The notes beneath the pieces are model-generated. The model was not told the DNA's origin. It ran no database searches and was given only the letters and a program-made list of their open reading frames with translations. Positions 43,359-58,217 of a stretch of 64,000 nucleotides of DNA are shown piece by piece. Location of the stretch: IMG/VR virus record IMGVR_UViG_3300050035_000427. The stretch is one strand, 5' to 3'. The first letter of the stretch is position 1; each line of letters opens with the position of its first letter. Both the position numbers and the translations under genes were made by a program. The stretch comes from an uncultured virus (IMG/VR IMGVR_UViG_3300050035_000427) (Duplodnaviria > Heunggongvirae > Uroviricota > Caudoviricetes).

Positions 43359-46014
43359 GATTTTCTTCATCTTTGCGTGCTTCCTGGCTTTGCTTGGGGT
43401 CAATGCCTCGGCGCAGACTGTCAATCCAAAGACAGATATTCGTTGGCCAGCATCATGCACTGGTACTGCGATCTACTACAACATCGTCACAGGACTTTGC
43501 ACAATTCCTCCTTCTGGTATCACCTCTATCTCAATTGCCACATCCAATGGCTTTCAGGGTTCATCGAGCGGTGGACTGAATCCAACTCTGACCCTGAGTG
43601 TTGATTCAACTCACGTGTTGCCAGTGAATACAGGTCTAGCAACGACCTATCTTAATGGGGCAGGCACTTACACAACGCCACCAGGAGGTGGAGGCACAGT
43701 AAATTCGATCTCAGTCGCCACATCCAACGGTTTTCAGGGATCGTCAAGTGGAGGACCAACTCCAATACTGACCTTGAGTTTGGATTCTACCCACGTCCTA
43801 CCAGTGAATACAAACCTGGCAACGACCTTCCTCAATGGTGCAGGTTTCTATACAACACCTCCAGGCACTCCGTTACCTGCTACCGTGATGCAGACGAATC
43901 AGAATGAAACCTTCGGCACCTATCAATTCAATCTCGCCAATTCAACCTTGTTGACCCTACCACCAACTGTTACAGTGGCCGGCAAGGTCATCAATCAGCC
44001 AACCAGTTCAGGAACTTATGCACTGACAAGTCAACTGACAACACCACCGATCGTGATCAATGGTATTGATGACTCTCTTTCAGGATGGAAGGGAGTTTGC
44101 GCTTACACAGCGACTGCCATCGGTACTTGGACCGGAATCACGAACACGATCACTGTCAGCAGCGTGGCTGGAACCATCGTAGGAGGTGGGTCTCAGGCGG
44201 TATGGGATGGCGGACACAGTGCTGTCAGTGCTGCAGTAGTCAGCATCGTCGGTAGCACTGTTGTTCTGACCACCAACACCCTCTCTTCGCAGCCTGGAGG
44301 AATTCAGTTGTATTTTGGCTGCAATCCTGGTGGTGACAATGTTCCAGGAGCTACTGCTCAGACTGTTGGTAACCCGACACCGTCTATAGATGGTGCCTCC
44401 ATGCTGGTCTCGTTGACCACACTTCCTGTATCCACCCAGACCAACGCTCTGTGGGTATACGAAGCTGGAGCTTGCGACTCTTGCACCAATGTAACCTCAG
44501 ATTTTGAGATCTACATCAACAATGGAGCGGCTGCTGACAACATGGAGTTTGATTCGTTCATCTTTGACCATACGGATCTGCTTGACTTCATGTGGGGCAC
44601 ACAGTGTAACCAGACGCTCGGAGTTTGGCAATATGCCAACAACAGCAGTCCCTGGCAGTCCACGACCGCTGCTTGCAACCTGACCTCTGGAACATGGCAT
44701 CACATTATTGAAACCTTCCACCGCGTTCCAGGAGACACAAGTTGCGGAGGAATGCCCTGCGAGTATTGGGATGACATTACGGTTGATGGAGTTGTGAACC
44801 ACATCAATGCAACCTACACAGCAACAAATCTTTACACCAACTGGGCATCAGGATCTGGATTGCAGTTCCAGATCGATATCCCAGCATCAACAGGAACTGC
44901 AATCACTGTTTCTGAGAATCTTGATCAAATCCTCTTTCAGGAATCTCCCACTGCAGGCTACTGTCAGATCGCTGGCTGCACGATGTCTGGACCGTTCCTT
45001 GTTCCGACCATCAATGGCCTGAGCGTGACCAACATTGGTATCGGAGCCGGATCTGTGAACCTTGGTGGTTCTCTGACCGCCTTCTCATCTGGCACTGGCA
45101 ACTTGGCAGTCGGACCTGGAGTTCTCAATTCAAACACCACCGGCAGCAACAACGTGGGTGTTGGCCAGGGTGCTCTGTATGTCAACACGTCTGGAACAAA
45201 CAACGTGGCAGTTGGTCTTAACTCCTTGAATTCCAACACCACTGGTGGCGGAAACACTGCTGTGGGACAGGGAGTCCTGGTTGCTAACACCACTGGAGGA
45301 GCCAACACTGGCATCGGCAAGAATTCTCTCACCCAGAACACCCTGGGCGGTGGCAATACTGCTATCGGTTACCAGGCTGGATTTAACCTGTCTACACCGT
45401 TGACGAACAACAACGCCTCAACTTTCATTGGTGAAAATGCCAACACCAGCGTCGATGCTCTGTCAAATGTCACCGTCATTGGTTACAACGCACAGGCCAC
45501 CACAAGCAACACAATCATGATCGGCAACTCTGCTGTGACCGCGATGTGCTGGGCAGGTGGTCGTGCTTGCTGGTATAGCTCTTCGGGACTTCCATCCTCT
45601 GCTCTCTGCACGGTTAGCAACATCGGATCAATCTACTCCAACACAGACGGTAGCAGCCCGACCACGACGTTGTACATGTGTACTTCGGCTGGTACCTGGA
45701 CCGCCAGCGCCACTGGAGGCGGCACTACAAGCACCATCTGCAGCGGGTCATTCGCTCTGAGCACAGCCCTTATCGCGGCGGGTGGTGACTATCTCAACAC
45801 TCAAGCCTGCACAGGATTGCTGTCCACAGATACCATCACTCTTGATTTCAACCTTGATCCAACCTCGACTGTGGGATTCATTCCTGGTTCTGGAGCGATT
45901 CTTTCTCTCTACAAATTCCCCACAGCCGGAACCATTAACGTGTATCAGGTGAACAACACGGCATCGAGTATCACGCCAGGAGCGGTGACGGTCAATTACC
46001 GTGTCTATCGCTAG
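43339..46014 (+). CDS. Tail fibre/adhesin-like protein with signal-peptide-like N-terminus
   Basis: NTTGxxNxAVG beta-roll repeats; ConA-like segment (WHHIIETF...ITVDGV); hydrophobic N-terminus ending ASA-Q. Confidence 0.7.
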   Translation: MKSTTPRIFFIFACFLALLGVNASAQTVNPKTDIRWPASCTGTAIYYNIVTGLCTIPPSGITSISIATSNGFQGSSSGGLNPTLTLSVDSTHVLPVNTGLATTYLNGAGTYTTPPGGGGTVNSISVATSNGFQGSSSGGPTPILTLSLDSTHVLPVNTNLATTFLNGAGFYTTPPGTPLPATVMQTNQNETFGTYQFNLANSTLLTLPPTVTVAGKVINQPTSSGTYALTSQLTTPPIVINGIDDSLSGWKGVCAYTATAIGTWTGITNTITVSSVAGTIVGGGSQAVWDGGHSAVSAAVVSIVGSTVVLTTNTLSSQPGGIQLYFGCNPGGDNVPGATAQTVGNPTPSIDGASMLVSLTTLPVSTQTNALWVYEAGACDSCTNVTSDFEIYINNGAAADNMEFDSFIFDHTDLLDFMWGTQCNQTLGVWQYANNSSPWQSTTAACNLTSGTWHHIIETFHRVPGDTSCGGMPCEYWDDITVDGVVNHINATYTATNLYTNWASGSGLQFQIDIPASTGTAITVSENLDQILFQESPTAGYCQIAGCTMSGPFLVPTINGLSVTNIGIGAGSVNLGGSLTAFSSGTGNLAVGPGVLNSNTTGSNNVGVGQGALYVNTSGTNNVAVGLNSLNSNTTGGGNTAVGQGVLVANTTGGANTGIGKNSLTQNTLGGGNTAIGYQAGFNLSTPLTNNNASTFIGENANTSVDALSNVTVIGYNAQATTSNTIMIGNSAVTAMCWAGGRACWYSSSGLPSSALCTVSNIGSIYSNTDGSSPTTTLYMCTSAGTWTASATGGGTTSTICSGSFALSTALIAAGGDYLNTQACTGLLSTDTITLDFNLDPTSTVGFIPGSGAILSLYKFPTAGTINVYQVNNTASSITPGAVTVNYRVYR
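43519..43866 (+). repeat. Two diverged ~56-codon repeats in the fibre gene
   Basis: SIxxATSNGFQGSSSGG..P.LTLS.DSTHVLPVNT.LATT.LNGAG.YTTPPG occurs twice. Confidence 0.85.
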
Positions 46015-46027
46015 GGAGATTGCTGAA

Positions 46028-48079
46028 ATGAAACAGTACCTCACACTTGCAGTTCTAGCTTTCTCTCTTCCGATGTGGGCTCAGAGCACGGTTGCAACCG
46101 GAGACTCTAGAACAGTCACTGAGCCCATCTTTCCGTCAATCTGTGCAAGAGTGAATGCAACAAAGTACATCAAGCAGACGACTGCTGTGAACATTGATCC
46201 CTGGAATTCAACATGTGGATCTACTGGAGGAACCTTTGGGATTCTCTGGTGCACTGGAGGCACGGATTATCAGCCCTCGTCTTCGTCGAGCAGCTATGTC
46301 TCGGCGGAAACTCTGGACAACACGGCTGTACAGAATGCACTGAACTCTTGTCCCAGTGGTCAGGGAGTTGAATTGATCCCGGGCACAAGTGGTCAAAATG
46401 CTTTCGTCCTCGCGCCGTTCAGCATCGTAAACAGTTCTGGAGCAGGAGTAAATCTCATTGTTGATGCAGGCATTCACGTGTTTGCCTCGCGCAATCTGTC
46501 TGACTACGGTGGCACCAACTGTGGACTGACAACTAACTCTACCAGTGATTGCAATCACTGGATCACTTCGCCCAGCACGACTGGCGCTGGCATCTATGGC
46601 TATGGAGTGCTTGATGGACGTGGATGGTCTGCTTACATCGGGCAAACAACTCATGGATTCTATGCCAATCGCATTCTAGCCTACTGTGATGCTCATGGTG
46701 GAGCCATAGCTGGATCTCCCGGTTGCCCGAACACAACTTCTGGTGTGAACTCTTACGGGCCAAACGGGATCAATCTGATTGGCACAACCAATTTCACCAT
46801 GTACAAGATCTCATTGTGGAACAGTGGAAACTTCCTTATTAACTGGCAGAGTGGCAATGGGTTCACTGCCTGGGATGTGAAGCTGATCGCTCCGTTCGAA
46901 GTTTCGAATACGGATGGTTGGGATCCTCTCAACTCGACTAATGGTACGTTCACTCACAGCTTCATAAGTGTTGGTGATAACCATATGGCTGTGAAAGCAA
47001 CATCAGGAGCTTCCTCCAACATCACGTTCTCAAATTCGCAAACCGGCGCTGGAATTGGAGTGGCAATTGGCACGAATGCTACAAACGGGATATCCAACGT
47101 CCTGGTAGATACTTTGGTGCAAAATGGAAATCTCTACAGCACTCAGAGCGCAGGAATAATGATTGGATCGAGCACCGCAGACGGTGGCCTTGTCAACAAA
47201 GTGACCTATCGGAACGTCTGCATGGTGAACGAGTACAACTCGATTCGTTTATACACCAACTATGGCGGTAACACTGGGTCAAATATTCCTGTCTATCAAA
47301 ACATCCTGCTGCGTAACATCACTGTGTTGCCCAGTACTGCTCCCTACACCACAGGCAACTCAGGCAGATATACCTTCCAGGGATTAAGTGGACATCCAAT
47401 AATTGCCCAAATCGACAACTTGCACATCCTGGGTACAAATCAAGGTGTCGCTGCTCAGTCAGGAGTAACGACTGATCAGTACTCGGCCATATACCTTGGT
47501 CCTGGGACGGTCGATTCCACGCTTCTAACCCAGTTTTCTGGTGGTACAGGAGTCACTACCTCTGGATCCACCACTTCCACTACGCAGTACGCTTGCACCA
47601 GCACAACCTGGCAGCCACTGATTGGCGAATTGAACATCAAGACTTCGGTTTCCAACAACAATCAAACAGCGACTGTGATAGCCTTGGCTCCGTTCACCCT
47701 ACAGGCCGTCCTACAGCCATCGACAGCAATCAGCACAAAGGAATCTCCGGCTCTCACAGCCTCAGTGAATTTCTATGACAATTGTTTCACAACTCCGACA
47801 AGTTGTTCACCAATCGGAACTGTTGCGCTTTCAGGAGATGGGACATATGCTGCCTATACTCTATCCAGCGGAACTTCACTGGGAACTCACAACTACATAG
47901 CTTATTATCCAGGAGATTCGAATTATCCAGCATACACATTTGGATCAGTCACGGTCACTGCAGTAACAGCGCCACCTGCTGCAAAGTCGTATGCACCCAT
48001 TGTGATTGGTGAATTGGTGACCCCGGCAGGTTTCGAACCTGCGACCCTCTGCTTAGAAGGCAGATGCTCTATCCACTGA
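46028..48079 (+). CDS. GH28 polygalacturonase-like beta-helix protein with C-terminal Ig domain
   Basis: Signal peptide; GYGVLDGRG, NTDGWDP, ISVGDN; AYYPGDSNY (Big-like). Confidence 0.8.
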   Translation: MKQYLTLAVLAFSLPMWAQSTVATGDSRTVTEPIFPSICARVNATKYIKQTTAVNIDPWNSTCGSTGGTFGILWCTGGTDYQPSSSSSSYVSAETLDNTAVQNALNSCPSGQGVELIPGTSGQNAFVLAPFSIVNSSGAGVNLIVDAGIHVFASRNLSDYGGTNCGLTTNSTSDCNHWITSPSTTGAGIYGYGVLDGRGWSAYIGQTTHGFYANRILAYCDAHGGAIAGSPGCPNTTSGVNSYGPNGINLIGTTNFTMYKISLWNSGNFLINWQSGNGFTAWDVKLIAPFEVSNTDGWDPLNSTNGTFTHSFISVGDNHMAVKATSGASSNITFSNSQTGAGIGVAIGTNATNGISNVLVDTLVQNGNLYSTQSAGIMIGSSTADGGLVNKVTYRNVCMVNEYNSIRLYTNYGGNTGSNIPVYQNILLRNITVLPSTAPYTTGNSGRYTFQGLSGHPIIAQIDNLHILGTNQGVAAQSGVTTDQYSAIYLGPGTVDSTLLTQFSGGTGVTTSGSTTSTTQYACTSTTWQPLIGELNIKTSVSNNNQTATVIALAPFTLQAVLQPSTAISTKESPALTASVNFYDNCFTTPTSCSPIGTVALSGDGTYAAYTLSSGTSLGTHNYIAYYPGDSNYPAYTFGSVTVTAVTAPPAAKSYAPIVIGELVTPAGFEPATLCLEGRCSIH

Positions 48080-48090
48080 GCTACGAGGCC
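48015..48090 (-). tRNA. tRNA-Arg(UCU)
   Basis: Cloverleaf, loop ctTCTaa, encoded CCA. Confidence 0.93.
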
Positions 48091-48320
48091 ACGACTTCTT
48101 CAGGTAATGGATCGCGGCAATACTGCCTTAGATTCCGATCACAAGACCCGATGCTCTTGTAATTTATCCTACCCTCTCGCAGTGTCATGTGATTGCAATC
48201 ACTGGGAGTGTCCTCATTCTCGAGACATTCATCTTCCCAGTAGCACACTGGACAGATTTCATACACATGACGCACGTCTTCGAGAGTGTGATTACCGCAA
48301 CAAGGACAAGGAAATAGCAT
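48081..48320 (-). CDS. Cys-rich CPCC domain protein
   Basis: FPCPCCG...YEICPVCYWEDE...CNHMTLREGRINY. Confidence 0.8.
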   Translation of the reverse strand: MLFPCPCCGNHTLEDVRHVYEICPVCYWEDECLENEDTPSDCNHMTLREGRINYKSIGSCDRNLRQYCRDPLPEEVVAS

Positions 48321-48333
48321 GTCTCACCAAACT

Positions 48334-48410
48334 TGGTGACCGTGGAGGGGATTGAACCCCCGACCTGCGGTTTAGGAAACCACCGCTCTATCCAACTGAG
48401 CTACACGGTC
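48334..48410 (-). tRNA. tRNA-Arg(CCU)
   Basis: Cloverleaf, loop ttCCTaa, CCA. Confidence 0.92.
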
Positions 48411-48579
48411 ATGCCTAACTTCTCTTTCAGGTACTCTCTCATCTGATACACTTCGTTCGGCTTGCACCAGATGTACACCGGACCCGTTGGTGCGGGTATA
48501 AGGCTCTCAGCAAATGCTCTTTGGAGCATCTCCAACGTGATATCTCCCGCATTGGATTGTTTCAGTTCCATGGATGTTA

Positions 48580-48655
48580 TGGTGCGCCCGAAGGGACTCG
48601 AACCCCCAACCAACTGGTTAAAAGCCAGATGCTCTGACCATTGAGCTACGAGCGC
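48580..48655 (-). tRNA. tRNA-Lys(UUU)
   Basis: Cloverleaf, loop ctTTTaa, CCA. Confidence 0.93.
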
Positions 48656-48710
48656 ACAGTGCGTTTGCCAGGCTCGTCTGAAGGTTTTCGCATTGTGACA
48701 CTCCTCTCTC

Positions 48711-48885
48711 AAAACTGATCTTAGAACCGGATCAGGGATTCCGGCAGGTTGTTAGCTGATCCGGTTCCTCGATTGATCAGGAGCGTTGAACTAGGTTTAC
48801 CGAACTAGACGATCCGGATTACATGAGCACGGAGTGCTCGATGCGCGAATAGCCTCATCCTCTGTCTGAACCTCTACCTGAACAA
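48711..48885 (-). promoter_or_regulatory. Putative Arg-codon leader with terminator-like hairpin
   Basis: AGG/AGA-rich mini-ORF, then a 12-bp stem (48724-48735/48756-48767) plus a 6-bp outer stem and T4. Confidence 0.4.
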
Positions 48886-48905
48886 CTCTCCTGAACCTCT
48901 AAACT

Positions 48906-48954
48906 TGGGGCCGAATCGCCTCGTGCACAGACGATATCTACCTCCGACTCGGCC
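48906..48954 (-). ncRNA. Mini tRNA-His-like hairpin
   Basis: 10-bp terminal stem followed directly by CCA (G-1:C73-like); inner hairpin loop CUGUGC. Confidence 0.45.
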
Positions 48955-48967
48955 AACATCGGTCATC

Positions 48968-49498
48968 TCAATAGAACAGGTACTTCTTCCACTTTTCCAT
49001 GCCGGCACCCATAGAACGAATCAGGTTCCGGTTGGTGTGAATGGTCAATGGACGAGGGTAGCGAATCAGTTTCATGTCCTTGATATCGCTCAGATCCCTG
49101 TCGCCCTTCTTCTGGTTGCAAGCCTGACAAGCCGTGACCAGGTTCTCCCAGCAGTTCCTTCCACCCTTGGACTTCGGTACAACGTGGTCCCAGGTGAGAT
49201 TCTTTGCTGAGAACTGAACACCGCAGTACTGGCAGGTGTAACCGTCGCGAAGGTAGATGTTCCGTCTGCTCAACTCCTGCTGACGGTGTGGCACCTTCCG
49301 GTACTTCACCAGCCTGACTACGCAAGGAAGAAAGAATCCTGGACGAACCAAGAGGTCATACTCTTCCTCAGACTTGGCAACTCCCTTGATTACCATGCAC
49401 AGTGCCCGCTGAGCACTCGCATAGCGCAGCGGCTCGTAACTGGCATTCAGTACGAGAACCGGAGTCGACTTGATGAGAGTGTTGGTTGCGGACAACAT
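48968..49498 (-). CDS. HNH endonuclease (McrA-like)
   Basis: VLVLNASYEPL...RDGYTCQYCG...DHVVPKSKGG..WENLVTACQACN. Confidence 0.9.
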   Translation of the reverse strand: MLSATNTLIKSTPVLVLNASYEPLRYASAQRALCMVIKGVAKSEEEYDLLVRPGFFLPCVVRLVKYRKVPHRQQELSRRNIYLRDGYTCQYCGVQFSAKNLTWDHVVPKSKGGRNCWENLVTACQACNQKKGDRDLSDIKDMKLIRYPRPLTIHTNRNLIRSMGAGMEKWKKYLFY

Positions 49499-49520
49499 GG
49501 TGGTTTCCTTTCTTGAAAAA

Positions 49521-49554
49521 TGGTGGAGGATCGGTCCGGAATGACTTCACCCCC
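49521..49554 (-). ncRNA. tmRNA-end-like / Ala microhelix
   Basis: GGGGGUGAA...CCUCCACCA with G3:U70 and A73; only 34 nt. Confidence 0.4.
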
Positions 49555-49558
49555 AAGT

Positions 49559-50185
49559 TCAGGCTGCCGACTTGATAGAGTCTAAAATTCTCACACATCT
49601 GGTCAAGTACCTGCTTCCTGAAGAATCACTCAATCCGACTTTTCTTAATGCTTGAGAAACAGTTTCAGACGTTCTTAGAGCTTCAAGCAACTGTTCATCT
49701 GAAATTCTTCCTTCGCTACTTCTACCCACTTTGTTTCCGCAATAGGTGGGCAACTGACTGTCACAATTGGGACAAATACCTCTGAAGTTACTGCGAGAAT
49801 TGTTGGATCGCACACCATCTATGTGATCTAGCCGAAGAGATATGGGTTTTCCATTCCACTCGTCAATCCCACAGATTAAGCACTTTCCTCCTTGTTCCCT
49901 TACAACCCTTTCCTTCTTACTGCCATACCCTAGATCTTCAAAGGGAGTAGCAGCTGATCTGGCGAGTATCTTGGCAGCCCGTTTCTTTATCGCCTCTGCT
50001 GACTGAGAATTTTCTCGAAAGGTGACGTACTTTTCATGATGTTCGGAGTACGCCTTCCTGCTCTTCTCACTCCTGCTCCGATTTACCTCCGGAGTCCAGG
50101 TCCTTGAATGACTACATTTGGAAGAGCAGAAATTTCCTTCTCCGTATGAGCCATCATGTTCCTTACCACACTTCTTGCAGATCAT
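49559..50185 (-). CDS. HNH homing endonuclease
   Basis: CKKCG..HDGSYG..FCS; CLICG...LDHIDG..NNSRSNFRGICPNCD. Confidence 0.85.
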   Translation of the reverse strand: MICKKCGKEHDGSYGEGNFCSSKCSHSRTWTPEVNRSRSEKSRKAYSEHHEKYVTFRENSQSAEAIKKRAAKILARSAATPFEDLGYGSKKERVVREQGGKCLICGIDEWNGKPISLRLDHIDGVRSNNSRSNFRGICPNCDSQLPTYCGNKVGRSSEGRISDEQLLEALRTSETVSQALRKVGLSDSSGSRYLTRCVRILDSIKSAA

Positions 50186-50226
50186 TCTAAGGGACTCCTT
50201 ATACTAAAGAATCCCCTAGTTCAAAT

Positions 50227-50304
50227 TGGTCGCAGTGAAGGGATTTGAACCCCCGACATCTTTCTTATGAGGAAAGCGTTCTCACCAGGCTGAACTACAC
50301 TGCG
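50227..50304 (-). tRNA. tRNA-Met(CAU), elongator type likely
   Basis: Cloverleaf, loop ctCATaa, paired 1:72, CCA. Confidence 0.88.
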
Positions 50305-50339
50305 ATTTATTCTTCGAACTACACTGCGATTTATTCTTC
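50292..50339. repeat. Perfect 24-bp tandem duplication over the tRNA 5' end
   Basis: gaactacactgcgatttattcttc occurs twice. Confidence 0.9.
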
Positions 50340-50674
50340 GTCATTTCCGTTCATCAAGTTTCTCCTGGTGGCATTCCAAACACTTCTGCTTGAGAGGCCA
50401 CTCGTTGTTACACGTCGTGACCTCTGTTGAGTTGCATGAAGGACAGTGAATCGAGGCCTTATCCAGCCATGCGAGCAGTTCCTGAAACTTCCTGTCGTCC
50501 TGCATATTCGGCCTTGATGTACTCAACTTCCTTGCTGTTGCAACTCTCGAGCTTCCGCCCGACCTTCCAATCCTTCTTGCGCTGCTCGATGACAAACTGA
50601 GTCCAAGTGTAAGAAGACGAGTAACTCGACTTCTCCTCGTAGCAGCGGAACCAAAGACCGTTGAAGTTCAAATA

Positions 50675-50950
50675 CTATCCGTCATACCACGAACGAGGGA
50701 CCTCCCCACCTGGGAGACTTACCTGCAGTTCTTGACAGATGAACCTTGCAACATCTTCCGGATGGACTTCTCCGTCGCTCGTCTTCTTCCAGCGACCCCG
50801 GTCGATGTTGTCTTGTGACAAACCCATCAACTCACTCAAATCCTTGTGATGCATCCGACCATCCGGAAATCTCACGAACAAGTCGGCCTTGCCAATCTTG
50901 AAGAGGAACGTCACTCCTCGAACTACGATCCTACGCATGCGGGACTTCAT
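50675..50950 (-). CDS. Hypothetical protein
   Basis: 91 aa ORF inside the tRNA array. Confidence 0.55.
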   Translation of the reverse strand: MKSRMRRIVVRGVTFLFKIGKADLFVRFPDGRMHHKDLSELMGLSQDNIDRGRWKKTSDGEVHPEDVARFICQELQVSLPGGEVPRSWYDG

Positions 50951-51180
50951 GAGGACCTTTCAGTGTCTTTTCCATCCTGGAGAAGCACCCTTCGAGTTGA
51001 ATCAACGCCACGACACCAACTACAGCCAGACTGACAAACATCCCCACTAAACATCCGAACAGAAAGGCAAGATGCACCAGAGCGGAAATCTCATCAGGGT
51101 TCATGCCATTCTGATACTGCGTTTCGCTTCTCCAGCGAACTTTTACCTGCTGCGAGAGAGAGACGGACGGTTGTCGATAC

Positions 51181-51207
51181 GTTTCAACCCACGCTCAAAA
51201 GAGCGAC
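51181..51207 (-). repeat. Solitary type I-C-like CRISPR repeat unit
   Basis: GTCGCTC-TTTT-GAGCGTGGGTTGAAAC; single clean copy, no cas genes in window. Confidence 0.55.
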
Positions 51208-51321
51208 ATTTGATCGAGGCCAGGTGCCGGTTGACAATCCACCACGTGCCTCTTCCCAGGATAGACGCGCCTCTCCGATCAGGACTGTTCCGACCACCGG
51301 AGACTACCCTAGACTAAACTT

Positions 51322-51729
51322 TCACCACTCGAAGTCCTTTGCAAGATGAACATTCTTCACCTGCATATTCTTCGTCGGAGTAAATCTAAGTGTCACAGTT
51401 CCGCCTCCTTGAAATTGTTGGATCGGTAACCAGTAGCACTTTTCTGTAGCGGGCAAGTAAGCAACTACCACATCAATCTCTTCAGACGTGTACTTCTTCT
51501 TGTATCCGCTATTTCGGCATTCAGCCGATAGACCCACTTCAACAGAATCCTTCGTCAAGCTACAGCTGCAATACTTCACTTGAACCCTGAGAAGTTCCTT
51601 TCCGTTGTCGACCACCAAGTCGTACCTGGCGTCTACAGAAGGAACGCTCACAATCCATCCCAACTCGGTGGCTCGGAGCATGACTTTCAGCTTTCCGATC
51701 TCACCCTTTTGATGAGTGCTTGCTAGCAT
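51322..51729 (-). CDS. PD-(D/E)XK endonuclease (intron-associated type)
   Basis: KGEIG...RYDLVVD...RVQVKY...KYTSEEIDV. Confidence 0.85.
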   Translation of the reverse strand: MLASTHQKGEIGKLKVMLRATELGWIVSVPSVDARYDLVVDNGKELLRVQVKYCSCSLTKDSVEVGLSAECRNSGYKKKYTSEEIDVVVAYLPATEKCYWLPIQQFQGGGTVTLRFTPTKNMQVKNVHLAKDFEW

Positions 51730-51751
51730 ATCTCATCAATACTCAAAACTT

Positions 51752-51827
51752 TGGTGCGAGCGGAGGGGATCGAACCCCCGACGTCCCGGTTAAGAGCCGG
51801 TTACTCTACCAACTGAGTTACGCTCGC
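51752..51827 (-). tRNA. tRNA-Lys(CUU)
   Basis: Cloverleaf, loop ctCTTaa, CCA. Confidence 0.93.
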
Positions 51828-51839
51828 ACATCTACAAAA

Positions 51840-51921
51840 AGGCTCTCCGGGGAGGTGGGCCATCCCTCCATACACTCCTCGCGAAAGAGAGTGTGTCTTG
51901 CCACTATGAAACGACCGGAAA
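51840..51921 (-). ncRNA. Non-canonical tRNA-like RNA (Glu-like)
   Basis: 7-bp acceptor, D-arm with AGUGG, enlarged anticodon loop containing CUUUCGC, abnormal 9-nt T-loop, no CCA. Confidence 0.5.
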
Positions 51922-51929
51922 CTTACAAA

Positions 51930-52120
51930 TTCAACGCCGGTGCTCTATCCAGGCTGAGCTACCACCAAGCGAATGGACCGTTCCGCCGACCTTGATTCCC
52001 CTCTAGAAAAGGAATCCTGGGACTCTTAGGGCATGGTCACTTGCTCTGTCTAAACGGGTGGGTTGGATTCGGACCAACGACCACCGGCTGCTTGTTGGGC
52101 GGAATGATCACACCCGAATC
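51930..52120 (-). ncRNA. Circularly permuted tRNA / YrlA-like RNA
   Basis: 3' half (52055-52089) lies upstream of the 5' half (51930-51968); opened at the anticodon loop. Confidence 0.65.
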
Positions 52121-52122
52121 TT

Positions 52123-52197
52123 TGGCTCCTGAGGAGGGATTCGAACCCACAACCATTCGGTTAACAGCCGAACGCTCTGCCGTTGAGCTACCCAGGA
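52123..52197 (-). tRNA. tRNA-Asn(GUU)
   Basis: Cloverleaf, loop ctGTTaa, CCA. Confidence 0.93.
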
Positions 52198-52445
52198 ACA
52201 CTTGTTATACTGCAACTTCCTCAATCTCGATCTGAACCTTCTTGCTGCTCATCACTTCGTCAGCAACACCGAAGGCAACCTCATAATCCTCAAATCTGGT
52301 TGCCTCGTAGCGATATCCAAACCTCAAAGTGCGGGTGATCGCAGCATCGTCTGAGATGACATAGTTCGATGTATTCGGTACTCTCAAGATGTGCTGCATG
52401 ACCTTACCCTCTACTCCGATTTATGAGATCGGGTACTGCTGAATT

Positions 52446-52521
52446 TGGGGAGTCTAGAGGGATTCGAACCCTCGACTACTGGTGCCACAGACCAGCGTTC
52501 TACCGCTGAACTACAGACTCC
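52446..52521 (-). tRNA. tRNA-His(GUG)
   Basis: Cloverleaf, loop ctGTGgc, encoded G-1 and C73, CCA. Confidence 0.93.
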
Positions 52522-52532
52522 ATGAAATTGTT

Positions 52533-52606
52533 TGGCTGCCTCTGTAGGATTCGAACCTACATATCCTGGTCCAGAGCCAAGTGTCCTGCCATTGAACGAA
52601 AAGGCA
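52533..52606 (-). tRNA. tRNA-Gln(CUG)
   Basis: Cloverleaf, loop ctCTGga, CCA. Confidence 0.9.
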
Positions 52607-52626
52607 ACATGTGAAACCGAACTTGT

Positions 52627-52706
52627 TGGGCAGGAACGGTGGGAATCCATTGACCTCCTGGTTGGAGCCAGAAGGCGTGGAAACCCATTCTTCCGCTGAA
52701 CTGCCC
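52627..52706 (-). ncRNA. Non-canonical tRNA-like RNA (Trp-like)
   Basis: gggcag/ctgccc stem, D-like arm, extra arm, 8-bp stem with CUCCAA loop, T-like arm. Confidence 0.45.
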
Positions 52707-52708
52707 GA

Positions 52709-52876
52709 CCGGGCAATGACTTCTAAGCTACATTCGCCGAAGCGAATGCTGGTCAACCTTCTCACCAGATCCCCGCCGTTGAAGGCGGTGCTTTGTTCGG
52801 ACTCGCCACGGAGGTTCCAGCCTCATGGGTCTGTCCTGGTCTAGTCGCACTGGCCCCTGGAAGGTCCATTGCCCGG
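52709..52876 (-). ncRNA. Unknown structured RNA
   Basis: 10-bp perfect closing helix ccgggcaatg/cattgcccgg; cUUCGg hairpin; several inner helices. Confidence 0.55.
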
Positions 52877-53109
52877 AAACTTTATTGCACGAACGAAAAG
52901 TAGACTAAGAGGCGGTGCAAACTACTTGATGAACAATCCGTCAATCACGCTCTTGGCTTTGTCTTCCGTTCTGACATAGTTCCGGACCACGTAGGTCTCG
53001 GCTATGATGCGAAAGCCGCCATCTCGTAAAGGATGAATCGTATACCCGCGATATATTGTGTCTTCCATACGAATCTCTACTGGAAAACCCAGCATATCGG
53101 TTAATCTTT

Positions 53110-53184
53110 TGGCGGGAAATAGAGGAATCGAACCCCTGAGTTCTGATTTGGAGGCAGACAGTTTACCAACTAGCTTAATTTCCC
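53110..53184 (-). tRNA. tRNA-Trp(CCA)
   Basis: Cloverleaf, loop ctCCAaa, G73, CCA. Confidence 0.88.
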
Positions 53185-53224
53185 GTTGAATCCAGACTTT
53201 CGGAACCATTACTGGAGGTTCCAA

Positions 53225-53755
53225 TTGAAATCTTGCGAAAATTGCACTACTCTTCACGATGGTACTTATGGTTCTGGTCGTTTCTGTTCAATTGGCTGTG
53301 CTAGAGGCTTTGCCACCAAAGCATCTAGGTTAAAAATCAACCAAGAAGTGAGTGCTAAACTGAAGGGTAAACCTGTTCGTAATCGTAGTCCTCATAGTAA
53401 AGAAGTGAAGGAAAAGATACGCAGAAGCATCAATCAAGGATTTCAAATCAAATTCCAAAAGTGGATAGATGACTGGCTTTCCGGAAAGATACATCCCACA
53501 AGAGCCAACTATAGAGTAGTGCACAAAGCATTAGCCATTTTAAGAGGAGATAAGTGTGAACAATGCGGTTGGAAAGAGGTTCATCCGAAAACTGGACTTA
53601 TCCCAGTGCAACTTCATCATATTGACGGTGATGGAGATAACAATTCACCAGATAATGTGAAACTGTTGTGTCCAAGCTGTCATTCACTCACTCTCAATTT
53701 CATGGCTTTGAACTACTACAACAAATTGTCAAAGATCACGCCGTTGTTCGCCTGA
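53225..53755 (+). CDS. HNH homing endonuclease, antisense within the tRNA array
   Basis: CENC..HDGTYGSGRFCS; CEQCGW...LHHIDGDGDNN..NVKLLCPSCH. Confidence 0.85.
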   Translation: MKSCENCTTLHDGTYGSGRFCSIGCARGFATKASRLKINQEVSAKLKGKPVRNRSPHSKEVKEKIRRSINQGFQIKFQKWIDDWLSGKIHPTRANYRVVHKALAILRGDKCEQCGWKEVHPKTGLIPVQLHHIDGDGDNNSPDNVKLLCPSCHSLTLNFMALNYYNKLSKITPLFA

Positions 53756-53772
53756 GCGAATCAATTCAAACT

Positions 53773-53849
53773 TGGTCGGGCCACTAGGGTTCGAACCTAG
53801 GACCTTGGGATTATGAGTCCCTTGCTCTAACCAACTGAGCTATGGCCCG
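53773..53849 (-). tRNA. tRNA-CAU, probably Ile2 (lysidine, reads AUA)
   Basis: Cloverleaf; anticodon arm GGGACUCAUAAUCCC resembles Ile2; Met cannot be excluded. Confidence 0.85.
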
Positions 53850-53877
53850 AACTCGAACTCGGCTCGTGCAAAAACTT

Positions 53878-53954
53878 TGGTGATCCCGGAGGGAGTTGAA
53901 CCCCCAACCTTATGGTTCGTAGCCATACGCGCTATCCAGTTGCGCCACGGGACC
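53878..53954 (-). tRNA. tRNA-Arg(ACG)
   Basis: Cloverleaf, loop ctACGaa, CCA. Confidence 0.93.
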
Positions 53955-53973
53955 ACTCTCAAAATCCATCCCT

Positions 53974-54009
53974 AAAAACCAAATCCCGCCAGCTTGTGGG
54001 CTTGGCGGG
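53974..54009 (-). terminator. Attenuator terminator upstream of the tRNA array
   Basis: CCCGCC-A-AGC/GCU-GGCGGG stem followed by AUUUGGUUUUU. Confidence 0.75.
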
Positions 54010-54036
54010 TGGAAACTCTGAAAATACCAGGTAGGA

Positions 54037-54132
54037 TTACGCACTACCTCCAGAATCCAGACCGCCGATGGCATGCTGATTTCGCTGCCACTGCTTATGC
54101 TGTCTCATCGAATTGGTCTGTATCTGTTTCAC
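54037..54132 (-). CDS. 31-aa leader peptide MKQIQTNSMRQHKQWQRNQHAIGGLDSGGSA
   Basis: GTG start with AAGGGAG RBS; TAGTATTAT -10-like box near 54155-54163; overlaps the antiterminator. Confidence 0.7.
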   Translation of the reverse strand: MKQIQTNSMRQHKQWQRNQHAIGGLDSGGSA

Positions 54133-54610
54133 AGTACTCCCTTGACAAATTTCATAATACTACGGTTTCCTCTGATCGGGGAAACTATTTTTGCCAGTGA
54201 TTACGGAATCCTTTGTAACAAAACACTCAACCATGAAGGATTCGAACCTTCGCTATGAATGCACCCAATCATGACACTGTTCAGCACCAGGGGTCTACAA
54301 AGGATTCCGTAATCACTGTACATTACACTCTACCGAACAACTTCTCAAAACGGTTAATGATGCCTTTAGACAGATTCAGGGAGGTACTCGCGTCTTTTAT
54401 CTCCCAGCCCGGTGGCCACCAGACAATTAGAAGATTGGCCTGACGCTTTCGCTCCCTGTCACTGCTCGAGTCTATCCTGTGTACTTTAGGAAGCAAGGCT
54501 CTGTTGGCTCCACCGCGCAATGGGTGATGAAGACCTGCCCCTCACTCACTTGTCAACTCAATGGATTCCTCTACGGTGGTCTGTGGAGGAACGGTTAGGC
54601 GGTCACTGGC

Positions 54611-55684
54611 TCATCGGTCAGTTGGGCATCGGCCATCGTTCAGACGAAGAGTGAACTGAGCGATATGAACTGGCTCATTCTCTTTGATGGCCTTCTGCCA
54701 GTAGAACTGATACTGACTGGCGTAACCTGCCAGCTGGGCATCCTCCAGTGTGAACTTCACAAAGGGGATGAGATTTTTGCCTCCCTCGATGCCGAACAAA
54801 CGGGGACCAAGAGCCTTCCTGATTCTGGCATAGGTGTAGCTGATGTAGATGCCAGGACTGGTGACGTTGCACCAGTTCTCAATGTCGAGGATGGTGTTCT
54901 TCCCGACTGCAGCTGAGTTGAACTGCCAGGCCAGGACGTTCCATGCCAACTGAGGAGAGACTACAGCGTTCTCGCTGGGCTTGATCACCTTGCTAACTTC
55001 TTCGAACAGTTCCTCAGCCGCCACAAGGTTCGCTTCTGCTCCCTCCTTCTCCCGGGAGCGCATCTTCTTGTAGTCCTTGCCCAGAACCAGACCCATCGGC
55101 TTGTGCTGATCTCCCAATCCCAGGCTCTTGAAATGTTCGTGTTGCTCATACCCTGTCAGATATAAGTCCGGAGCACAGAATTCTACGAAGCTCAGATCGT
55201 GTGCTGCATAGGTTGGACGACCGTCAGAGCGGTATATCACGACACCGTTGAACATCTTACAGCCTTCGTACTCTCCGGTGCCGGGAGTCAGTGTGTATCC
55301 TGTGGGCGGCTTCATGTCCCTATCAAATAAGATGAATGGCTGATATCCGGAGATGTGACACCAGTTGTTGAATGCCGTGTACGCTCCCTCTTTCTCGCCA
55401 ATGGTGACTCCCAGCATTGCGACTGGCTTGGCTTTGGTGATATTTGCCAGCGCGGCGGCGATTGCCAGGTTCTTGATGTGCCCGACATGAAGGTCTTTGT
55501 TGAGGTTAGGTGAGAATCCATCCAGAGTTATCTCGGATGGTTTGGCTTTCTCAGGCCATTCCCAGACGGTTGGCGTTACATGGTAGTTGTGGTAAATACC
55601 CACAGATTCATAACGAAATCCCTTGAGATCGAGTGGAGTGAGTGAAGTGACACCAACTCCCACTTGTTCAGGTATAGGATGCAT
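54611..55684 (-). CDS. argS: Arginyl-tRNA synthetase-like protein, compact and C-terminally truncated
   Basis: SPNLNKDLHVGH, YRSDGRPTYAAHDL, TGYEQHEHF, KKMRSR, YISYTYARI. Confidence 0.8.
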   Translation of the reverse strand: MHPIPEQVGVGVTSLTPLDLKGFRYESVGIYHNYHVTPTVWEWPEKAKPSEITLDGFSPNLNKDLHVGHIKNLAIAAALANITKAKPVAMLGVTIGEKEGAYTAFNNWCHISGYQPFILFDRDMKPPTGYTLTPGTGEYEGCKMFNGVVIYRSDGRPTYAAHDLSFVEFCAPDLYLTGYEQHEHFKSLGLGDQHKPMGLVLGKDYKKMRSREKEGAEANLVAAEELFEEVSKVIKPSENAVVSPQLAWNVLAWQFNSAAVGKNTILDIENWCNVTSPGIYISYTYARIRKALGPRLFGIEGGKNLIPFVKFTLEDAQLAGYASQYQFYWQKAIKENEPVHIAQFTLRLNDGRCPTDR

Positions 55685-55773
55685 GAGATCTTCCTCTCCA
55701 ACCACATTCTACCAGAAGATGCCGGAATAAGGCTAGTTTACCCGATCTCTGGTACCGCAACGTAGAGTGAAGT

Positions 55774-56481
55774 ATGAAAAAGACAATCCGTCTCACCGTG
55801 GGCAATGTCGAAACCTCTGGCGCGGAAGCTATTGTCAACGCAGCGAACAGGCATCTCAAGACTGGTCGCGGTGTATGCGGTGCGATCTATGCCGCCGCTG
55901 GCGTGACAGAGCTTGAAACCTATGTAGCAGATCACTTTGAAGGCTGCCGCACCGGCAGAGCCGTGGTGACTCCAGCGTTTGGCATCAGCGGATCCAAGTA
56001 TGTCCTCCACGCTGTTGGTCCGATCTACTCCGAATACACTCCCCTAGAGGCGGCTCGCCTCCTCCGCAAAGCCTATCACTCGATCTTTGAACTCTGCTAC
56101 TCGCTGGGAGTCAAGAATGTCGGCGTCGTGGCGATCTCGTCTGGTATCTACGGGTATCCGGTTGAAGACGTTGCGAACATCGCGGCTGACGAGGCCATGC
56201 GCACCCCTTACAAGGGCGACATCACCTTCTACGTCTGGCAGGACAATCTGGCCGTCTTCGAGAAAGCCTTCGCTTCGATCCTCACTCCAGCAGTTCCTGT
56301 GATCGTCGATAAGTGCGCTGTATGCGATTTGCCGGCTGACCACATCGACCATATCGGCCTTCTTGGAATGGGAATTGACCATCCTTTCAAAAGTTCACTG
56401 CAGCCAGTTACACCAGTATCTGATCCTGTGGACGCGAGCACGCGCAAGGTCTTCACGATGGATGACCCAGCAGTAGTCTGA
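55774..56481 (+). CDS. Macrodomain (ADP-ribose hydrolase) protein
   Basis: AIVNAAN..L..GRGVCGAIY, HAVGP, AISSGIYGYP. Confidence 0.92.
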   Translation: MKKTIRLTVGNVETSGAEAIVNAANRHLKTGRGVCGAIYAAAGVTELETYVADHFEGCRTGRAVVTPAFGISGSKYVLHAVGPIYSEYTPLEAARLLRKAYHSIFELCYSLGVKNVGVVAISSGIYGYPVEDVANIAADEAMRTPYKGDITFYVWQDNLAVFEKAFASILTPAVPVIVDKCAVCDLPADHIDHIGLLGMGIDHPFKSSLQPVTPVSDPVDASTRKVFTMDDPAVV

Positions 56482-56485
56482 CACT

Positions 56486-56740
56486 ATGGCGCCAACGAAG
56501 TGGAAGAAAATTCGCTGGTTCTTCAAGATCGGCACTGACTACTTTGCCCGGTCTGAGATCAAGTCTGTTCGGCAGTTGAAGACTCCGTCTCCTGATCGAG
56601 ACGGAGGACCTGATCGTACCTGGATTGTGACGGTCACCCCTGAGTCAGTCGGTGGTGACCCTCGCTACAGCAAGATCTGGGTCACTGAAGAACAGGTTGC
56701 GCCTATCCTGGTTGCTCTCGAGGAAGAGGTCAACGGATGA
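56486..56740 (+). CDS. Hypothetical protein
   Basis: Coupled ORF. Confidence 0.55.
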   Translation: MAPTKWKKIRWFFKIGTDYFARSEIKSVRQLKTPSPDRDGGPDRTWIVTVTPESVGGDPRYSKIWVTEEQVAPILVALEEEVNG

Positions 56741-57060
56741 TTGAATTAAAAGAACATCAGATTAAGGTTTCTGGTCTGAGGAAGCTCAGTGCCAAGGTCC
56801 TTAGAACCAAACTACGACTTGCTCCTGGGTCTACCGCAAACATGCGAACGTCATGCAGTCTCGTAGCGAGATTCTGGAGTTTCTTGAGATCTTCTTGTAT
56901 CTGCAGGTATGTATTGTAATTCACCATGACCGCCAGCTTCTCGCCCTTTGTACTTATGACGAGAACCTCTTCGGCCTCAATGGACAAGGCGATTCGTACT
57001 GCAAAGCCGGTAACTGAGGCGGCCAAGGTCAAGGTCGACAACGACAACGCACTCATATAG
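56737..57060 (+). pseudogene. Phd/YefM-like antitoxin gene disrupted by a 171-bp inversion
   Basis: Re-inverting 56810-56980 restores a continuous 107-aa ORF. Confidence 0.8.
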
Positions 57061-57536
57061 GGATTCAAGATGGGGAAGTGGGACAATGATGTATCCGTGC
57101 TTAGGCTGGGTCGATATCTACGAAAGAATGCCACAGCCAGGGGATCACGTTGAACTTAGAATGTCCGACGAACCTCATGGAAACTCGGGAAGCATATGTG
57201 GAATCACGAAAGTGAACAAGACTCCGAAGTTAGGAGAACACTGGCCAATCCCGGATCCCAGGTCAAAGGGTAGGATGGTCTGGGTTAGGTACTGGAGAAG
57301 AGTTCAGTGAATTTGTCTCGTTCAGTTCAGCGTCGTGTTGCAGCCCAGAAAGGTGAGCCTGCTCCAACTTTTGAGAACAAGGCCATAGAGGAGTCTGCAA
57401 CTGGGGGAAGAATACATGAAGCAGTTGAGGCTATTCGCCAACTCAGAGAGAAGAGAAAGCTCGCTGCTCCAGTCATCCTACCCGATCCTTCAACCGACTC
57501 AGTAGAAGATGTGTAACTATTCAGGAGAACCCGCAC

Positions 57537-58217
57537 ATGAGTAAACTCACCGAAGCATTGCATCATATTCCTGGTGCAAACCTCGTCGTGGACTTTGACG
57601 ATGATAAACCAGAACCCAGTCATCACCCCGATCGCGCTGCTGCTCCACCAGCTGCCTCTCAGGGATATCAGCCTCAGCAGCCTCAACCGGCCTCCTATCA
57701 ACCCAATGCCTACACTCCAGCTGTTGGTGTAGTGGGAGTTTCCACTGTCGATCCTAACAACGATGCCTACCAGCGTCTGCTTGCCAAGACTGACTTCAAG
57801 ACCTCCAAGGCTTCGGTGGTCATCGAGGGATGTCTCGCTCTTCTTGCCAATGTACCAATGGATGATCGTCTCAAGTTCAAGGCGGCGGTCGCTCAGGCCG
57901 GAGCACAGGGCATCACAGCGGACGTTATTCTGTCCACCTTTGACCAACTCAAGCAGGCACTGCAGGATGAAGGCGAGAAGTTCGCCAAGTTCATTCAGAG
58001 TCAGCTGGACAAAGAGGTCACAGGCCGGCAGAACCAGATCCAGCAGCTTACTGCTCAGGCTCAGCAGATTCAGGCTCAAATCAATCAACTGAACGAAGAT
58101 TCGTTCGCTGCTCAACAGAAGATTCAAGGCGCACAGCACACGTTCGACACCGCGTTCACTGCTCGTTCGGCTGAATTGGACAACGAAAAAGCAACCAAGG
58201 CAAATCTACTCAATTAA
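57537..58217 (+). CDS. Coiled-coil protein of the ABC-associated operon
   Basis: Q-rich coiled coil; aggag RBS. Confidence 0.7.
   Translation: MSKLTEALHHIPGANLVVDFDDDKPEPSHHPDRAAAPPAASQGYQPQQPQPASYQPNAYTPAVGVVGVSTVDPNNDAYQRLLAKTDFKTSKASVVIEGCLALLANVPMDDRLKFKAAVAQAGAQGITADVILSTFDQLKQALQDEGEKFAKFIQSQLDKEVTGRQNQIQQLTAQAQQIQAQINQLNEDSFAAQQKIQGAQHTFDTAFTARSAELDNEKATKANLLN

Follow-up and report, generated by a model that had tools for sequence, protein, structure and literature searches.

The array of 11 tRNA genes in this phage genome is preceded by an element that is probably a leader-peptide attenuator, one in which ribosome-mediated control of transcription gates the array and is tuned to the array's own products. 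The element lies on the minus strand of the window, by which is meant the whole stretch of 64,000 nucleotides that was analysed, and which corresponds to bases 60492-124491, read in reverse complement, of a virus record of 187 kb with an estimated completeness of about 60%. A short open reading frame (ORF) in front of the array has codons that match the tRNAs encoded downstream, it is followed by a predicted intrinsic terminator, and its 3' part can pair with the 5' arm of that terminator. The same arrangement recurs in front of other tRNA arrays, in this genome and in distant giant phages, with a leader whose codon content changes with that of the array.

In the proposed mechanism transcription would begin upstream of the leader and a ribosome would translate the 31-codon leader, the first 20 codons of which would sample ten of the 11 downstream tRNAs. 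With all of the aminoacyl-tRNAs plentiful the ribosome would reach the stop codon and cover the tail of the ORF, the terminator would form and RNA polymerase would halt 20 nt before tRNA-Arg. If any one of the tRNAs were scarce the ribosome would stall upstream, and the free tail would pair with the 5' arm of the terminator, giving read-through into the array. The outcome would be negative feedback in which each array is switched by the supply of its own tRNAs, the shortage arising from codon demand, from decay of host tRNAs or from nuclease attack. We infer that the leader is translated, that the hairpin terminates transcription and that the switch acts in the direction just given; the element may likewise respond to the loss of host tRNAs, anticodon nucleases included. 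Since the leader matches its own array, the element is read first as product feedback on tRNA supply. The parts of the element and the four tRNA arrays of the record are listed in Table 1.

Table 1. Parts of the element at the head of array B (positions in the window) and the tRNA arrays of the whole record (positions marked 'genome').
Feature	Position	Strand	Basis
Candidate promoter motif: 11-nt box, 22 nt with a small hairpin, -10-like box	54153..54195	-	
Shine-Dalgarno-like purine run, 4 nt 5' of the GTG start	54137..54143	-	direct sequence reading
Leader ORF (leader B), GTG start, 31 codons plus stop	54037..54132	-	sequence and ORF list
Regulatory stretch, codons 2-20 (Lys, Gln, Ile2, Asn, Met, Arg, His, Trp)	54073..54129	-	
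ORF tail, codons 23-30, 5' strand of the proposed antiterminator	54044..54066	-	folds
3' strand of the proposed antiterminator; final 5 nt belong to the terminator 5' arm	54004..54034	-	
Predicted intrinsic terminator: hairpin 54009-53985 (-15.1 kcal/mol) and U-rich run 53984-53974	53974..54009	-	
tRNA-Arg (ACG), first gene of the array, U-run 20 nt upstream	53878..53954	-	ARAGORN, Rfam
Ten further array tRNAs (CAU/Ile2-like, Trp, Gln CUG, His, Asn, Lys CUU, CAU, Lys UUU, Arg CCU, Arg UCU)	48015..53849	-	
Array A: Tyr, five Leu, Ser GCU	genome 55447-57190		
Array B: the studied array, 11 tRNAs	genome 70538-76477		
Array C: Val, two Gly, Asp, three Ala, two Glu	genome 153994-156223		
Array D: three Pro, Phe	genome 181579-182182		

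ARAGORN and Rfam each placed 11 tRNAs at 48015-53954, all on the minus strand, and in the direction of transcription the array reads Arg ACG, CAU, Trp, Gln CUG, His, Asn, Lys CUU, CAU, Lys UUU, Arg CCU and Arg UCU. Endonuclease genes, including one in the opposite orientation, break up its 6 kb; a single transcript across all 11 tRNAs is assumed here. The endonuclease-like ORFs among the tRNAs are of the HNH or PD-(D/E)XK kind and lie at 48968-49498, 49559-50185 and 51322-51729 on the minus strand and at 53186-53755 on the plus strand. At the far end of the array a glycoside-hydrolase-28 (pectate-lyase-like) ORF at 46001-48079 on the plus strand extends into sequence antisense to the last tRNA. 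The first CAU tRNA shares 82.6% identity with genes that E. coli records label as tRNA-Ile, which supports its assignment, already made in the preliminary description, to the Ile2 type. The second CAU tRNA found no match in E. coli and is perhaps the elongator tRNA-Met. In contigs from related strains (L004 among them) leader and terminator are kept and the sequence just downstream differs. This divergence suggests that array content may be reshuffled behind a constant head.

The preliminary description had claimed a 31-codon ORF on the minus strand with a GTG start and a ribosome binding site, of which 17 of codons 2-20, and none of codons 21-31, are read by tRNAs of the array, so that ten of the 11 tRNAs are represented. 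The ORF with its purine-rich site was found as described (Table 1) and the codon tally was reproduced. Under ordinary wobble rules 17 of the 19 codons from 2 to 20 belong to the codon set of the array, the misses being ACC and TCG; this count presumes that the first CAU tRNA is of the Ile2 type and that the ACG anticodon carries inosine at position 34 and so reads CGA. Not one of codons 21-31 is read by an array tRNA, and the only array tRNA that leader B fails to represent is Arg CCU. In the long ORFs of the phage 24.1% of codons belong to the array B set, and at this background (0.241) a match of 17 in 19 has a binomial p of 3.2e-9. Among the 2442 short ORFs of the 187-kb record (18-60 codons, six frames) leader B ranks first, three orders of magnitude ahead of the next best (p = 2.5e-6). 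When the frame of leader B is shifted by one base, 8 of 30 codons fall in the set. The codon match of leader B is not chance. A 14-codon ORF upstream of tRNA-Trp within array B also scored (p = 2.3e-5); it is antisense to an HNH gene and has no terminator, and was set aside as a chance match. One strain difference is seen in leader B, at codon 6, which the array does not read, a single event that proves nothing.

Across the whole record ARAGORN found 31 tRNAs in four arrays, in agreement with Rfam. Array C was reached through a weak DNA match of the motif upstream of leader B. The heads of arrays A and C are built like that of B, with a short ORF followed by a hairpin and T-run 8-21 nt before the first tRNA. 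Leader A consists mostly of Leu, Ser and Tyr codons, with at least one codon for each of the five Leu tRNAs, and leader C mostly of Val, Gly, Asp, Ala and Glu codons. When every leader was tabulated against every array the diagonal of the four-by-four table, from A to D, read 11/29, 17/30, 15/33 and 5/18. The diagonal is the row maximum for arrays A, B and C, whereas in row D the array B set is higher at 6/18. Leader C ranks second, leader A fourth and leader D 61st among the 2442 short ORFs. Altogether, codons for 30 of the genome's 31 tRNAs occur in the leader of the respective array; when random gene windows took the place of the leaders the number was 15.8 +/- 2.9, and the highest of 20,000 draws was 26. 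The head of array D has a matched ORF (5/18) but no terminator that could be recognised by the scan for a hairpin and T-run or by folds. A second ORF just upstream of array D, rich in Phe and Pro codons (genome 181311-181403), ranks third of the 2442 and overlaps both the end of the preceding gene and the candidate motif.

The tRNAs of this genome are grouped by type, into those with a long arm (Leu, Ser, Tyr), all of the amino acids with GNN codons, Pro with Phe, and the remainder, and similar groupings recur in distant giant phages. Directly after tRNA-Val in array C there is a weak tRNA-like match at genome 154083-154147 (23.5 bits, below the cut-off) that is probably a decayed tRNA.

Relatives of the region were sought in several ways. 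No close relative was found by DNA in a phage genome collection, in which the arginyl-tRNA-synthetase (ArgRS)-like protein encoded next to the array gave only two matches, at 30-34% identity, and searches of viral contigs with a single protein or with an exact 60-nt pattern returned none. Scans with the promoter motif recovered near-identical strains only and no diverged copy of leader B; one further locus from such a scan (L071) matched by chance. With an alignment of the ArgRS-like protein 45 giant-phage loci at 28-58% identity were reached, and a first scan of the ORFs upstream of tRNAs in ArgRS-linked loci gave the same leader pattern.

The cross-phage set was made up of the tRNA regions of three distant giant phages and of two close relatives. 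Heads were selected blind to codons, as a hairpin and T-run no more than 50 nt upstream of a tRNA. In five phage records 120 tRNAs have an upstream gap of at least 100 nt, and 17 of these have a hairpin and T-run. After weak hairpins and two near-identical copies of the array C head were dropped, 12 distinct strong heads from four phages were retained. At all 12 an upstream ORF shows enrichment for the amino acids that its array serves, and the stop codon of this matched ORF lies 19-32 nt from the hairpin in every case. All 12 leaders were next compared with all 12 codon sets. For nine leaders the own array scored highest and for the other three it came second, the arrays that outranked it having overlapping amino acids. 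The summed own-array score was 71.5 against 21.8 +/- 6.1 for permuted pairings, a value reached by none of 200,000 permutations of leaders and arrays. The match is also specific to frame, with 133 of the 331 codons of the 12 leaders in the set when read in frame and 43 and 47 of 331 in the other two frames. Leader codons therefore co-vary strongly with array content both within the genome and across distant giant phages, as the preliminary description had envisaged when it proposed such a comparison and a permutation of the codon-to-tRNA match.

In the four phages 69 tRNAs have a gap of 250 nt or more; only 12 or 13 of these carry the terminator, and most of the 69 have neither a terminator nor a matched ORF, so the element is not universal. 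Two more matched ORFs were found farther upstream of tRNAs in this group, with no terminator detected. Three loci (L055, L061 and L062) from two phages (G002 and G003) contain tRNAs with a CUA anticodon, labelled as Pyl by ARAGORN, which are possible amber suppressors.

What the leaders match can be narrowed by holding the peptide fixed and redrawing its codons according to phage usage. Coverage of the tRNAs then falls from the 30 observed to 26.2 +/- 1.8 (P = 0.024), and the number of in-set codons lies above the redraw for leader B only (17 vs 14.0, P = 0.018). Because the actual choice of synonymous codons adds so little, the match is mainly at the level of the amino acid, and it is on amino-acid composition that the correspondence between leader and array mainly rests. 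Codon choice weakly supports sensing by isoacceptor, amino-acid identity carrying most of the signal. The claim that stalling at a depleted isoacceptor leads to read-through is supported in the sense that the co-variation and the geometry recur, but the discrimination that it implies is mainly one between amino acids.

This result bears on the alternative that the same attenuator, which reads aminoacyl-tRNA, senses amino-acid starvation and not tRNA supply. That 26.2 of the 30 covered tRNAs survive the redraw is what would be expected of such a sensor. So are the codons that none of the arrays of this genome reads, namely seven TCN serine codons in leader A and five GTY valine codons in leader C. 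The TCN codons are read by no tRNA in the roughly 60%-complete record, and Ser tRNAs that match them sit in the Leu/Ser array of another phage. The GTY codons, on the other hand, can be accounted for by the presence of tRNA-Val GAC, which reads them, in the C array of a close relative. Furthermore, all six Gln codons of leader B are CAG and the only Gln tRNA of array B is CUG, and the excess of in-set codons in leader B over the synonymous redraw also argues for sensitivity to the tRNA. Finally, under amino-acid starvation extra tRNA would give no relief, and the matching of leader to array would be left without a purpose. Starvation sensing therefore appears unlikely, and feedback by tRNA supply is retained as the preferred reading.

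The terminator claimed about 20 nt before the first tRNA was borne out as a prediction, in that a hairpin and, just downstream, a U-rich run are present, the run stopping 20 nt short of tRNA-Arg (Table 1). The hairpin of array B was not called by a simple consensus terminator scanner because its loop or bulge exceeds the limits of that tool. The switch was folded in a transcript cut just before the 3' arm of the terminator, with or without a ribosome mask. In this truncated transcript the pairing of the leader B tail is the minimum-energy fold (-26.3 kcal/mol) and sequesters 5 of 7 nt of the terminator arm; with the ribosome masked at the stop codon the tail pairing is gone and the arm is free (0 of 7 nt paired). 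The same holds for arrays A, B and C, in each of which the tail pairs with the 5' arm of the terminator in the truncated transcript unless a ribosome is at the stop, and the antiterminators of the three (-26 to -32 kcal/mol) are stronger than the terminators (-13 to -17 kcal/mol).

Comparison with shuffled sequences gave a less even picture. Of 500 shuffles for array B 40 were equally stable (-26.3 vs -21.3 +/- 3.3 kcal/mol), compared with 1/500 for array A and 0/500 for array C, and the duplex of tail and arm in array B had p = 0.19, or 0.076 in another version of the test. The pairing of tail and terminator put forward in the preliminary description is therefore the minimum-energy fold and is abolished by a ribosome mask, but it does no better than shuffles, and array B's own antiterminator is the weakest link of the case. 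With all 12 heads considered (Fisher combined p = 2.5e-13), nine have a tail/arm duplex that is stronger than those of shuffled tails at p <= 0.05, and three fail the test. The duplex test was used in place of a count of paired arm bases in whole-leader folds, which proved insensitive because GC-rich arms pair in shuffles too.

In full-length equilibrium folds the terminator stays in arrays A and B under every ribosome mask. Of the two states for which RNA folding had been proposed, the truncated transcript gives the predicted antiterminator or, under the mask, a free arm, and the full-length one keeps its terminator; any switch would thus have to act kinetically, like that of classical attenuators. 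No upstream hairpin of the 1:2 protector or pause type was found in arrays A, B or C, and the antiterminator forms without a ribosome mask; an untranslated leader should therefore read through. A ribosome stalled at codons 18-20 of leader B would cover the base of the antiterminator.

The geometry of the heads is relevant to a switch of the reverse polarity, in which efficient translation of the leader promotes read-through by a ribosome that melts the terminator, as in pyrBI, and the array is made when translation is healthy. The leader ORF is close to the terminator, as this would require, and the direction of the switch is itself a prediction. The 19-32 nt between stop codon and hairpin at the 12 heads is nonetheless beyond the assumed reach of the ribosome (about 12 nt), and the complementarity between tail and arm in nine of the 12 heads would be given no role, so that this polarity is very unlikely. 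It is likewise very unlikely that the ORF is an ordinary small gene or a chance occurrence next to a leaky terminator, the tRNAs being expressed by constitutive read-through or from an unseen promoter. Such an explanation could draw on the non-significant antiterminator of array B taken alone, on the fact that promoter, transcript end and peptide are all predicted only, and on the many tRNA clusters in these phages that are without the element. It would leave unexplained both the frame specificity (133/331 vs 43/331 and 47/331) and a leader composition that tracks the array at 12 of 12 heads chosen by their terminators (0/200,000 permutations), and the 20 nt from the U-run to the first tRNA leaves no room for a promoter. 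The idea that the leader RNA binds tRNAs directly by codon-anticodon pairing without translation, like a T-box with several specifiers, is scarcely credible, for although T-box leaders also choose between terminator and antiterminator according to tRNA, only tRNA families match in Rfam at E <= 1 across 46000-58000 of the window, and the triplets that match lie in a single open frame, complete with start, ribosome binding site and stop, the match being lost in the other frames. Attenuation by a translated leader that senses the supply of the array's tRNAs is thus the reading adopted in what follows.

Upstream of leader B a motif of two boxes is a candidate promoter. It is also present at the head of array C, where it was detected as a 77% match elsewhere in the genome, and at no more than two mismatches per box it occurs in the 187 kb only at these two array heads, with identical spacing. 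The motif did not match the sigma-70 consensus. The small hairpin in the shared motif forms a terminator-like site on the plus strand at 54164-54186, downstream of the plus-strand HNH gene. On the minus strand an 8-codon mini-ORF at 54137-54156 has its ATG within the -10-like box and a stop that overlaps the GTG of leader B; the counterpart ATG in array C is in frame with the leader, and that in array A is followed at once by a stop. The mini-ORF may reflect translational coupling or coincidence. Farther upstream a perfect 23-bp inverted repeat (54195-54318, minus strand) surrounds about 77 nt with a tRNA-like T-arm, in which ARAGORN at relaxed settings finds a degenerate tRNA (Ile GAU-like, or Pro with the intron option). 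The head of array C also has a long inverted repeat of similar kind upstream. For the repeat at 54195-54318 a decayed tRNA, an insulator or a processing site is conceivable.

The gene just upstream of the array, which starts with tRNA-Arg, encodes the short ArgRS-like protein (54611-55705, minus strand). The match is to the catalytic domain only, and the identical database protein is 394 aa long. The family has 257 relatives, many of them on contigs of hundreds of kb, and in relatives the gene often adjoins Arg tRNAs. A Macro-domain protein (55774-56481, plus strand) is encoded next to it.

Metatranscriptome libraries from peat contain the stretch, with contigs that cover leader B and the tRNAs. 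One RNA-library contig spans the terminator (window 53517-54282, X1 record 5). The four RNA-library runs are contigs, which carry no information on ends, strand or level and may include DNA carried over. The contigs reach upstream of the candidate motif; in two runs they end at 54282 with no loose end, loose ends being seen elsewhere, downstream of the head, and the stretch upstream of 54282, the ArgRS-like gene included, has almost no cover in the RNA runs (contigs only). Neither the ends at 54282 nor the low cover is taken as evidence.

The control of phage tRNA gene expression is largely unknown, and the usual accounts of these genes, as compensation for codon usage or as replacements for degraded or cleaved host tRNAs, are silent on dosage. 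On balance we lean towards a broader view, in which giant phages would split their tRNAs into regulons, each behind its own multivalent attenuator. Each attenuator would then act as an autogenous homeostat for its array and as an alarm against tRNA-cleaving defences, widespread across unrelated lineages. Attenuation would here, for the first time, sense the very tRNAs whose genes it regulates. If true, this would explain why the tRNA genes of giant phages are sorted into arrays by amino acid and how the phage avoids over-production of tRNA, and it would provide an answer to the depletion of a single isoacceptor within seconds and without a protein regulator. A textbook mechanism would be extended to a new class of target. 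It would also offer compact programmable parts, in which the codon content of the leader sets the tRNAs that are sensed, and an annotation rule for functional tRNA regulons in metagenomic phages.

Phage tRNA arrays, such as those of T4, T5 and the giant phages, are seen as cargo for codon usage or counter-defence. Like these, the present array is a cluster of tRNAs interspersed with homing-endonuclease genes; in the parts of the literature that were covered, the array descriptions found mention no attenuator ahead of the array and no leader with matching codons. A full-text search that reached few subscription journals and little of the older work on T4 and T5 gave no paper, for phages or for bacteria, in which tRNA genes are under leader-peptide attenuation, in keeping with the earlier remark that no description of this for a phage tRNA array was known. 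The papers covered include PMC4810235, with its reference lists on phage tRNA arrays, and PMC3082878. Rfam holds no family for the element, and no T-box match at E <= 1 was obtained at 46000-58000 of the window.

Among the known systems closest to the element are also attenuators and T-box riboswitches. T-box riboswitches bind uncharged tRNA directly and need no translation. As in the T-box, the choice between terminator and antiterminator would here be set by the state of a specific tRNA; the element differs in having an ORF with predicted translation and in its lack of a T-box match in Rfam. The pheST attenuator, with its pheM leader, controls phenylalanyl-tRNA synthetase. The two have in common leader-peptide attenuation of a gene of the translation apparatus, read through the cognate charged tRNA, whereas in pheST the target is a synthetase, a single amino acid is sensed and the system is bacterial. 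The tRNA-Phe genes of E. coli, pheV and pheU, have no such leader, with pheV preceded by a plain promoter and pheU by no more than about 106 nt.

In enterobacteria the amino-acid operons trp, his, leu and pheA are governed by leader-peptide transcription attenuators. The element shares with these a short ORF (translation being predicted here), a cluster of regulatory codons and, between leader and target genes, a predicted intrinsic terminator. A proposed alternative hairpin, statistically marginal at array B, would likewise use the 3' part of the ORF and be blocked by a ribosome at the stop. It lacks the 1:2 protector or pause hairpin, which is typical of trp but not required. The thrL leader (Thr, Ile) and the ilvL leader of ilvGMEDA (Leu, Val, Ile) are multivalent attenuators. 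Here too one leader carries the codons of several amino acids, and shortage of any of them would relieve termination, although thrL and ilvL sense two or three amino acids of one pathway, whereas the mix in the present leaders is the content of the adjacent array and varies from array to array. In contrast to trp, his, leu and pheA, one leader here samples up to eight amino acids and ten tRNAs, and the regulated genes are those of tRNAs and not of biosynthetic enzymes, so that the sensed molecule would be the product itself. The machinery is that of classical attenuation; the novelty lies in tRNA arrays as its target, in a logic that refers to itself and in how broad a multivalent leader is used.
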